Below, in pieces: positions 62,760 to 64,000 of a DNA stretch of 64,000 nt. How positions within the stretch are numbered: position 1 is the first letter of the stretch; each line of letters begins with the position of its first letter. The stretch comes from a virus. The translations under genes were made by a program, and so were the position numbers. The stretch is from positions 625-64,624 of the IMG/VR virus record IMGVR_UViG_3300019487_000032, one strand, 5' to 3'. The notes beneath the pieces were generated by a model. That model did no database searches. It was not told the origin of the DNA and saw nothing but the letters and a program-made list of their open reading frames with translations.

Positions 62760-63422
62760 ATGAACGAAGACGAGATCGACTGGCTCAAGGGTATGGTGCA
62801 ACTCGAAGACGAAGCCGGCGGCTTCCCGGGTGTGACGAGTGGCGTACGCCAGCATCGCGACTGGCGTAACGTCATGCGGCCGGGCTACTTCGGTCGACGT
62901 CGCGATCTCAAGCACGCGCAGTTTGATCAGCAGTACGGCGCCGGCAACTGGCGCCTCGCGTGGGTCGTCACCGGCAACGCGGTCAGTGGTCCCGCGGCCG
63001 ACGTCGTGTTCCCGTTCGTGCGCGCGTGCAAGCAGTTCTACGAGGAGAGCTACTACGTGCACCTCAAGGACCGCCCCGACGCGATCGACTTCATCTGTGA
63101 GTTCACCGAGTGCATGGACAACGCACCGACCAATGTGCACTCGGGCTGCGACTACGCCGCGCAGGAAGCGTACTCGACGCACATCCAAGACATTGCCGTG
63201 CGCAACGTGCTCGCGCGGCTCGGCCGTTCGTTCACCGGCAAGCGCACCGAGCTGCTCGTGATCCGTTCATCAGATTCGAACGGCTACAGGTTCGGTCCCG
63301 GCAACGTGCCGTTCTACTTGCCCGAGTGGATCACGCGCCCGTCACTGTGCCCGACATGGGCGAGTGCGCGCAGCGTCGAGGACTTCTGGCAGAGTAACAA
63401 GTGGTTGCAGATCGCCGCTTGA
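62760..63422 (+). CDS. Hypothetical protein
   Basis: 220 aa; GGAG upstream. Confidence 0.7.
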   Translation: MNEDEIDWLKGMVQLEDEAGGFPGVTSGVRQHRDWRNVMRPGYFGRRRDLKHAQFDQQYGAGNWRLAWVVTGNAVSGPAADVVFPFVRACKQFYEESYYVHLKDRPDAIDFICEFTECMDNAPTNVHSGCDYAAQEAYSTHIQDIAVRNVLARLGRSFTGKRTELLVIRSSDSNGYRFGPGNVPFYLPEWITRPSLCPTWASARSVEDFWQSNKWLQIAA

Positions 63423-63493
63423 ACGAAAATTTGAATCTGTCGGTCGGACCTTAAAGATCCAGGCCGATCTCTTGAATGTGCTACCGTCCTGCG

Positions 63494-64000
63494 ATGCGCA
63501 ACGCGGTGATCATCGAGATCCGCGCCGCCGAGGGTGGCGCAGATGCCAAGCTCCTGGTCGTGGAGCAGACCAAGATCTATCTCCGGCTCGCCGGTCGGAG
63601 ATGTCTTTGACGTCGAACTCGTAGAAGAGCGCGCGGGTCTCACGATCCTTCGCGTGCTCGGGAAGCACGCTGCCGAGACGTTCAAGGACGAAGCCGGCGG
63701 CCATCGGTGGCAGCGGATTCCGCCCACCGAGAAGCGCGGTCGCGTCCAGACGTCGACGATCACGGTCGCGGTGCTCGCCGAGCCCACCGCCGTCGAAGTT
63801 GTGCTCCACGAGCGTGATCTCGACTTCAAGTTCTGTCGCGCGAGCGGCAACGGCGGGCAGAACGTCGCGAAAACGGACAGCGCCGTGCAACTCACGCACA
63901 AGCCGACGGGGATCAGCGTCCGCTGCGAGACCGAACGATCGCAGCACGACAACAAGGCCACGGCGGTCGCAGTGCTGCGCGCGCGGATCTGGGAAGTCAC
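63494..64000 (+). CDS. Class I peptide chain release factor homolog lacking domain 1; needs a +1 frameshift at 63605-63611; 3' end outside the window
   Basis: Frame 0: MRNAVIIEIRAAEGGADAK...RRCL-stop. +1 frame: DVELVEE...EAGGHRWQRIPPTEKRGRVQTSTITVAV...RASGNGGQNVAKTDSAVQLTHKPTG..CETERSQHDNK. Confidence 0.9.
63596..63611 (+). other. prfB-type programmed +1 ribosomal frameshift cassette
   Basis: CGGAGA-TGT-CTT-TGA-C, compared with the canonical prfB AGGGGG-TAT-CTT-TGA-C. Confidence 0.8.

Follow-up and report, generated by a model that had tools for sequence, protein, structure and literature searches.

A phage gene for an RF1-type release factor without domain 1, predicted to be expressed through a prfB-type +1 frameshift

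The programmed +1 frameshift at CUU-UGA-C, the textbook case of autoregulation in translation, is considered peculiar to release factor 2 (RF2). Here we analysed a 64,000-nt stretch of viral DNA (the window), corresponding to bases 625-64624 of the 64,848-nt linear IMG/VR viral contig IMGVR_UViG_3300019487_000032 (CheckV completeness estimate 53%). Its last gene would encode a class-I release factor (RF) derived from RF1, with domains 2, 3 and 4 kept and domain 1 absent. The reading that we favour, and hold to be fairly probable, is that this 223-aa factor is made only via a +1 shift of the prfB type, at a UGA which in this copy is contested by the host RF2, and that it serves as an extra terminator. 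With UGA-C in the A site, the tRNA-Leu that occupies CUU (codon 38) in the P site would re-pair on UUU, and a GGAG resembling a Shine-Dalgarno (SD) sequence, three bases upstream, would aid the slip. Termination at UGA would yield a 38-aa dead-end peptide and slippage the full factor, the output being set by the race between the two. If the product reads UAA and UAG only, the terminator in this copy would be the host RF2; output would rise as RF2 activity per ribosome falls and would not be self-limited. The factor would then act as an RF3-independent extra terminator within a phage translation module, probably in a host of the Myxococcota.

An interrupted release factor gene at the end of the window

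Direct reading of the sequence gives an ATG at 63494 that opens 38 codons, the last of which, CTT, is directly followed by TGA and C (Table 1). An initial annotation, made from the letters alone, had proposed here an RF1-type gene gated by an RF2-type frameshift; its positions for ATG, CTT, TGA, C and GGAGA, as well as the 3-nt spacing, are exact, base for base. When CTTT is read as one step, the two frames give a joined product of 223 aa, open to the window end and completed in the parent contig, where the +1 frame stops at a TGA (window-equivalent 64166-64168); the contig itself stops 56 nt past the gene. The joined product carries the codon-recognition loop QRIPPTEKRGRVQTST and the motif GNGGQNV. 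Four features of a prfB-type cassette are present: CUU and a stop, an SD ending 3 nt upstream, C at position +4 and a colinear protein in the +1 frame. As had been remarked initially, the default list of open reading frames (ORFs) lacks the gene, and open-ended calling gives just a 44-aa ORF and the 3′-open +1 ORF.

The junction RRCL/DVELVEE aligns without gap with RRGLDVELVEE of P0011, an uninterrupted natural homologue that shares 69% identity with the joined product over 219 residues. Similarly, RRCL/DVELVE pairs colinearly, again without gap, with RKGWNLEVAE of an RF1 structure chain. Readthrough or stop reassignment at the window site was ruled out, as homology resumes in the +1 frame and not in frame. 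No downstream RNA stimulator was found, the segment 63611-63700 folding no better than shuffles (z = +0.35).

The TTT run, where the initial annotation had seen room for a single-base error, shows no indel in independent contigs: those of relatives from wetland/soil and bog metagenomes span 63605-63611 intact and keep CTT TGA. This comparison is of contigs and not of raw reads, and the one contig that is identical probably stems from the source sample; the support at the shift site thus comes from the contigs of relatives, not from read depth. A cave metagenome is the best-matching public run for the window DNA, and no public RNA run containing this DNA was found.

Table 1. Features of the release factor gene and related elements (window coordinates)
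Feature	Position	Strand	Remarks
ORF1, frame 0	63494..63607	+	38 codons, MRNAVIIEIRAAEGGADAK...GRRCL; first strand and alpha-5 helix of RF domain 2
Alpha-5 tip AAEGGADA (ORF1)	63524-63547		
SD-like GGAGA	63597-63601	+	exactly 3 nt (TGT) before CTT; weak version of putative internal SD stimulator
+1 shift site CTT TGA C	63605..63611	+	CTT (codon 38) 63605-63607, TGA 63608-63610, C 63611; CUU to UUU slip of peptidyl-tRNA-Leu proposed, UGA in A site
ORF2, +1 frame	63609..64000	+	DVELVEER...; rest of domain 2/4 and domain 3; 165 nt more past the window
PPT of codon-recognition loop	63720-63728		joined product
GGQ	63852-63860		joined product
TGC-TACCGT-N6 element	63479..63493	+	abuts start codon; candidate -10 of leaderless or short-leader mRNA
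TAnnnT boxes	27190, 30854(-), 30927, 33953, 36218, 61096, 63494		6-7 nt before plausible starts without SD

Conservation of the cassette among relatives

Protein search gave about 120 close relatives of 170-235 aa, falling in two groups: uninterrupted ORFs of ~222 aa, and +1-frame fragments with spurious N-termini GG-x-F-D, which correspond to the SD and CTT TGA C read in the +1 frame (some have F-S, F-N or F-E). A close-relative scan of viral contigs with a single protein returned no match, and an alignment-based scan retrieved relatives. The resulting set comprised 163 loci: 80 of 499 matching IMG/VR stretches, 80 of 205 bacterial ones, the window contig and two phage-database records. The need for a prfB-style +1 shift, initially proposed for the window gene, applies at the same codon in 142 of these loci, while 12 are uninterrupted, seven have an in-frame stop and two are cut off. 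A further scan added 11 shift sites, every one with CTT.

We then counted the composition of 135 non-redundant shift sites. The P-site codon CTT and the T that follows it are invariant (135/135 for both). The stop is TGA in 96 (71%), TAG in 36 (27%) and TAA in 3 (2%), and the next base (+4) is C in 112, G in 21 (16%), A in one and T in one. The consensus at -12 to -7 is CGGAGG: some SD-like run stands three bases upstream in 114 sites (84%), namely GGAGG in 84, another G-rich 5-mer in 14 and a 4-mer as in the window in 16, the remaining 21 having none. Close relatives of the window gene read GGAGG at the place of its GGAGA (63601 A>G). The SD-N3-CTT-TGA-C pattern whose conservation the initial annotation had put forward as a check is thus kept at this codon, with variation in the stop. 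Uninterrupted members carry CTC, CTG, TTA or Phe codons at the shift position, and no SD, indicating that the nucleotide pattern tracks the frameshift state and not the protein. A huge-phage homologue (LR745208.1, 48% identical) has GGAGGGG-T-CTT-TGA-C at the same codon.

Conservation at the protein level was observed in both frames, that of frame 0 (ORF1) extending across 140+ loci; judging from these alignments, both frames are under protein-level selection. Taken alone, the window shows a single-base frame break beside a short T run, as expected if the gene were broken, wrongly assembled or coding for two separate polypeptides. We give this explanation practically no weight, since about 150 diverged genes, assembled independently, share the identical break and codons, protein conservation extends to both frames, and ORF2 has no conserved start codon among relatives. 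Moreover, three T in a row do not suffice for transcriptional slippage. The family-wide conservation, together with the independent contigs, rules out an assembly error or a private indel.

Identity of the joined product

Both Pfam domains of the superfamily of class-I release factors were found above the gathering score: PCRF at residues 3-91 (profile positions 100-194 of 194; 67.7 bits, cut-off 24) and RF-1 at residues 100-207 (E 2e-29; 102.2 bits, cut-off 35). The NCBIfam RF1 model aligns with residues 4-210 at its positions 105-317 of 347. NCBIfam scores decrease from RF1 (213 bits) to RF2 (140), PrfH (90) and ArfB (45), and all lie under the curated cut-offs: 210.6 against 423.25 and 213.4 against 400 for the RF1 models TIGR00019 and NF001859, 90.1 against 166.65 for PrfH (TIGR03072) and 45.4 against 100 for ArfB (NF006718), where residues 101-135 only are matched. 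The joined product has no curated model of its own. Among solved structures, the best sequence matches are RF1 chains (E 4e-43), and ORF1 pairs with RF1 residues about 87-121. The recognition loop Q-R-[IV]-P-P-T-E-x-x-G-R-x-[HQ]-T-S matches that of RF1 element for element and the alpha-5 tip GG-x-D is kept. Since the PCRF and RF1 matches start mid-profile and the alignments are colinear, domain 1 is absent and the two frames encode one RF1-like body. The initial assignment to the RF1 type, based on a PxT-type loop, and the initial claim of a missing domain 1 are both borne out, the former also by phylogeny (see below). Domain 1 of RF1 and RF2 contacts RF3. We infer that the product is specific for UAA and UAG.

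The structure was examined on an AlphaFold model of P0011 (mean predicted local distance difference test score, pLDDT, 86.8). The segment equivalent to ORF1 forms a strand (3-11) and the alpha-5 helix (14-33), and the junction falls in the loop between this helix and the next strand. In RF1 the tip of the alpha-5 helix reads the first base of the stop codon; as ORF1 supplies this helix, ORF2 alone would be incomplete. The model fits ribosome-bound RF1 with a template modelling (TM) score of 0.90-0.91 and a root-mean-square deviation of 2.0 Å, as compared with TM 0.82-0.85 for RF2 and 0.68 for PrfH.

An architecture without domain 1 is also that of PrfH, so we considered a stop-independent ribosome-rescue factor of the PrfH/ArfB kind, switched on when termination or decoding fails. 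The tmRNA genes that adjoin the gene in three viral loci would fit such a factor, as would the deletion of the recognition loop in a few members (L002, L025/L027, L030 and P0113). We nevertheless find it very improbable: the PrfH and ArfB scores fall short as given above, the P0011 model fits PrfH at TM 0.68 only, and the 163 loci hold no conserved partner, RtcB or ligase included, no neighbour family occurring in more than nine of them. Similarly, the rtcB-prfH arrangement is not seen at the window locus, where the ORF preceding the gene (62760-63422) matched nothing in Pfam or PHROG. Most members hardly vary in the codon-recognition loop, which favours a codon-dependent factor over a rescue factor.

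Origin of the cassette

In an IQ-TREE phylogeny of 63 family members with myxobacterial RF1 and RF2, the family is monophyletic (Shimodaira-Hasegawa-like approximate likelihood ratio test, SH-aLRT, 99) and sister to RF1 (99). The earliest branch within it is a pair of uninterrupted genes (97-98), and a FastTree of all 154 non-redundant members with an RF1/RF2 outgroup gave the same basal order. In the RF2 model, which has 353 positions, residue 38 falls at about position 150, ~125 residues away from the prfB site (about codon 26). The position being non-homologous and the earliest members uninterrupted, the cassette was not inherited with prfB, in agreement with the initial annotation, and the device most likely arose inside this RF1-sister lineage. 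Frameshifted members are found in both major clades, so that it may have had one origin or several. The window gene nests among copies from Myxococcota, next to L004 and a metagenome-assembled genome of Deltaproteobacteria (SH-aLRT 98-99).

Stop identity and possible regulation

The cassette had initially been taken for a sensor of host RF2 activity. This is reasonable for the UGA copy of the window and too narrow for the family: with TGA, TAG and TAA all used at the shift site and at least 28 TGA/TAG switches on the tree, the device is not RF2-specific. Near-identical pairs (L129/L136 and L107/L086; branch lengths 0.01-0.16) differ in their stop, TAG versus TGA. Such a change takes two base substitutions, presumably via the rare TAA. 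TAA is read by both host RFs. Because TAA and A or T at +4 are nearly excluded, even at low GC (among 21 low-GC members TAA occurs once, and +4 is C in 10, G in 10, A in one and T in none), the selected feature seems to be a weak stop that just one release factor recognises.

No covariation was detected between the recognition tripeptide and the shift-site stop, the ratio of PPT to PPN loops being 51:28 with TGA and 21:5 with TAG (Fisher p = 0.15). The family also includes SPT and other loop variants.

Members with UAG could be self-regulated by their RF1-type product, and those with UGA would be regulated in trans. The initial verdict that the device cannot be classic autoregulation is accordingly reasonable for the window copy, with its RF1 loop and its relatives carrying in-frame TGA, and does not extend to the UAG members. 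Classic autoregulation would mean that the product reads UGA or all three stops and terminates at its own site, like RF2. The 71% of TGA sites would agree with this, free interchange of TGA and TAG would be natural for an omnipotent factor, TAA could be avoided since host factors dominate there, and loop variants (PPN, SPT and others) exist. We consider it unlikely, however, as the recognition loop is that of RF1 element for element, loop type is not tied to the stop and one clade holds in-frame TGA in its own gene.

This clade deserves description. In-frame TGA was found in 30 of 47 further, more distant viral homologues, at conserved aligned positions 38, 40, 45, 47-49 or 53. Relatives of this kind (L213-L256 and L003, L069, L079, L080 and L158, viral apart from one bacterial locus; GC 0.30-0.61) form, as far as sampled, one clade (SH-aLRT 85), and most end in TAA. 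Canonical RF1 and RF2 have a conserved Trp (GW) at aligned position 38, and recoding of TGA as Trp is accordingly likely for some of these genes; those of L069 and L243 have TGA as their terminal stop as well, which speaks for readthrough in these two. That one related clade has TGA in frame within this very gene makes it probable that the products of the family do not read UGA. One of these loci, L079, is a phage contig of 34% GC whose release factor gene contains in-frame TGA twice; ~2 kb downstream of the gene lies a tRNA of the amber suppressor type, anticodon CTA (L079:5781-5853).

Two huge-phage loci from IMG/VR differ again. L009 (3106-3108) and L019 (3109-3111) have an in-frame stop at codon 39, reading TAT TAG ATG and CTA TGA CTG respectively. 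They nest among frameshifted clades, and their flanking ORFs of ~300 aa are without in-frame TAG or TGA. Gene-specific readthrough at the position of the gate, or in L009 termination-reinitiation (TAG then ATG), may operate there.

The gate might also be a fixed attenuator and no sensor, holding at a low constant yield a factor that is harmful in excess, with neutral choice of the stop. Stop identity often switches, 21/135 sites are without SD, uninterrupted and frameshifted members coexist, and overexpressed release factors lower fitness (PMC12421855), all of which would suit an attenuator. Yet TAA is nearly excluded at low GC, where it is expected to be the commonest stop, and its scarcity, together with that of A and T at +4, points to tuned termination strength; besides, any stop in the A site is mechanistically open to release factor competition. 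We rate a fixed attenuator about as improbable as autoregulation by an omnipotent factor.

Start of the gene

Family alignments (M-x-x-[IV]-I-[IV]-E-I-R) support ATG 63494 as the start; the alternative upstream ATG 63476 lacks conservation in L176, a 157-kb relative whose factor is 95% identical. No SD was found in the sequence before ATG 63494. The 17 nt at 63477-63493 (TGTGCTACCGTCCTGCG) are identical in L176, and further upstream the DNA is unrelated, the ORF of the window being replaced in L176 by a tRNA gene. L004 carries TGC-TAGCCT at the same distance from its start. TAnnnT-N6/7 precedes at least six other plausible gene starts of the window, compared with 20 of 3,805 (0.5%) of all ATG/GTG, which suggests that leaderless transcripts are common in this phage. 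The leaderless start proposed initially thus gains slight support from the identical 17 nt and from TAnnnT elsewhere, whereas a scan for sigma-70 consensus promoters upstream of the gene found none. Processing of a tRNA-mRNA co-transcript would be another account. In L176 two tRNA-like genes end 26 nt before the ATG. These two (L176:9771-9923) are odd, one having anticodon ATG with G33 and the other an 8-nt anticodon loop (GATG).

Neighbourhood, host and role

Bacterial copies are almost all from Myxococcota and include those on the complete chromosomes of Minicystis rosea and Archangium gephyra. As the window gene nests among them, a myxobacterial host is likely for the phage. The prfB of four myxobacterial genomes (L164-L167: Kofleriaceae, Nannocystaceae, Archangium and Minicystis) retains the canonical CTTTGA shift, its +1 frame reading GG-x-F-D. 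Such hosts are thus able to use the shift signal, and these four genomes hold two release factor genes with the same device at different positions. In rough gene calls the window phage uses TGA 35, TAG 18 and TAA 14 times as stop, and no sign of stop recoding was seen in it.

Same-strand tRNA genes lie beside the gene in 28 of 60 viral loci. Here the gene stands inside or next to same-strand tRNA arrays (L005, L012, L024, L031, L060 and 23 others) of up to 25 tRNAs in 6.6 kb, with tmRNA in three of the 28 loci, where it adjoins the gene (L005, L016 and L049). ARAGORN also predicted tRNAs with four-base anticodons in L007 (taag) and L028 (tgaa). Elsewhere in the window we recognised a helicase, an ATPase and an HNH endonuclease; the neighbours of the gene in the window and those in four myxobacterial neighbourhoods gave no informative Pfam or PHROG matches. 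The most likely role, by inference, would be that of an RF3-independent extra terminator for UAA and UAG in a phage translation module.

Discussion

We propose that the window gene is expressed through a +1 shift at its UGA and that this shift responds to RF2. Several points weigh against this proposal. Slippage is predicted from sequence alone, in the window gene as in every other member, and the window SD is the weak GGAGA, with 21 of the 135 family sites having no SD at all. The logic of sensing RF2 is obscure, because an RF1-type factor cannot relieve an RF2 shortage. With at least 28 TGA/TAG switches, selection may be for a stop read by one RF or for plain attenuation, and about one-third of members have PPN in place of PPT. 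As to the proposed role, the 64-kb window contains no tRNA, suppressor or other translation genes, and the neighbours of the gene have no function recognisable with Pfam or PHROG.

A broader scheme can be put forward more tentatively, as a possibility that we hold less likely than the proposal for the window gene itself. The family would be a third lineage of class-I release factors, carried by phages and myxobacteria, RF1-derived and, for want of domain 1, RF3-independent, with a convergent prfB-like gate: UGA (read by host RF2), UAG (read by RF1 and by the product) or, in some relatives, an in-frame stop. It would monitor and top up termination capacity during infection, and would be a first instance of cross-regulation between release factor classes.

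The present data place a device like that of prfB in a large natural family of RF1 type, at a new position and with UGA, UAG and rarely UAA, in viruses as well as on bacterial chromosomes. The frameshift cassette would thus be able to evolve more than once, and the stop variants, as a series provided by nature, can serve to test what it senses. A terminator of their own that does not depend on RF3 seems to be supplied by many phages, along with tRNAs and tmRNA. On the practical side, gene callers cut such genes short, and the fragments are labelled in public databases as "peptide chain release factor 1".

The closest known device is that of prfB itself. As there, CUU occupies the P site and a stop the A site, C is preferred at +4, the end of the internal SD lies 3 nt upstream of CUU and 6 nt upstream of the stop, and the +1 frame encodes the rest of a class-I RF. 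The differences are that the gene is of RF1 type, that the shift falls in domain 2 (codon 38) and not in domain 1 (about codon 26), that the family has TAG in 27%, TAA in 2% and G at +4 in 16% of sites, and that at UGA sites the product is probably not the terminating factor. In 8,164 genomes the stop of the prfB shift is TGA in 98.6% and never TAG, and the same 2025 survey, covering >12,000 genomes, reported that programmed frameshifts are absent from prfA, as is UAG from the prfB motif (PMC12421855). A 2016 review of recoding called an RF1 counterpart of the prfB frameshift unknown, and our search of the full-text literature found no publication that describes this family or a frameshift of the prfB kind in a gene of RF1 type.

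With RF1 (prfA) the product shares the best sequence and structure match, the PxT-type loop, the GG-x-D/E tip and GGQ. It differs in the absence of domain 1, in a shorter C-terminus (223 versus about 360 aa in all), in scores below the RF1 cut-offs and in a Gln in place of the loop His of RF1 (RVQT in the window product); also, prfA is not known to frameshift. PrfH (RF-H), the partner of RtcB2 in the rescue of damaged ribosomes, is likewise a class-I RF homologue that lacks domain 1 (~200 aa). Its decoding region differs and its gene is always preceded by rtcB (PMC1586002, PMC9304027), in contrast to the window family, which keeps an RF1-type loop, has no RtcB neighbour and stays under the PrfH cut-off.

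Release factor genes borne by phages, often beside tRNA genes, are known from the recoded Jade, Lak and Agate phages. These RF1 and RF2 genes are described as ordinary RFs in code-change modules, with no frameshift reported (bioRxiv 10.1101/2021.08.26.457843), whereas the window phage is without sign of recoding and has no tRNA gene in its 64 kb. Finally, a viral gene for a termination factor gated by recoding has a precedent in a giant-virus eRF1 gene, which requires readthrough and frameshifting (PMC3521657); that system is of eukaryote type, belongs to viruses of amoebae and uses unrelated signals.

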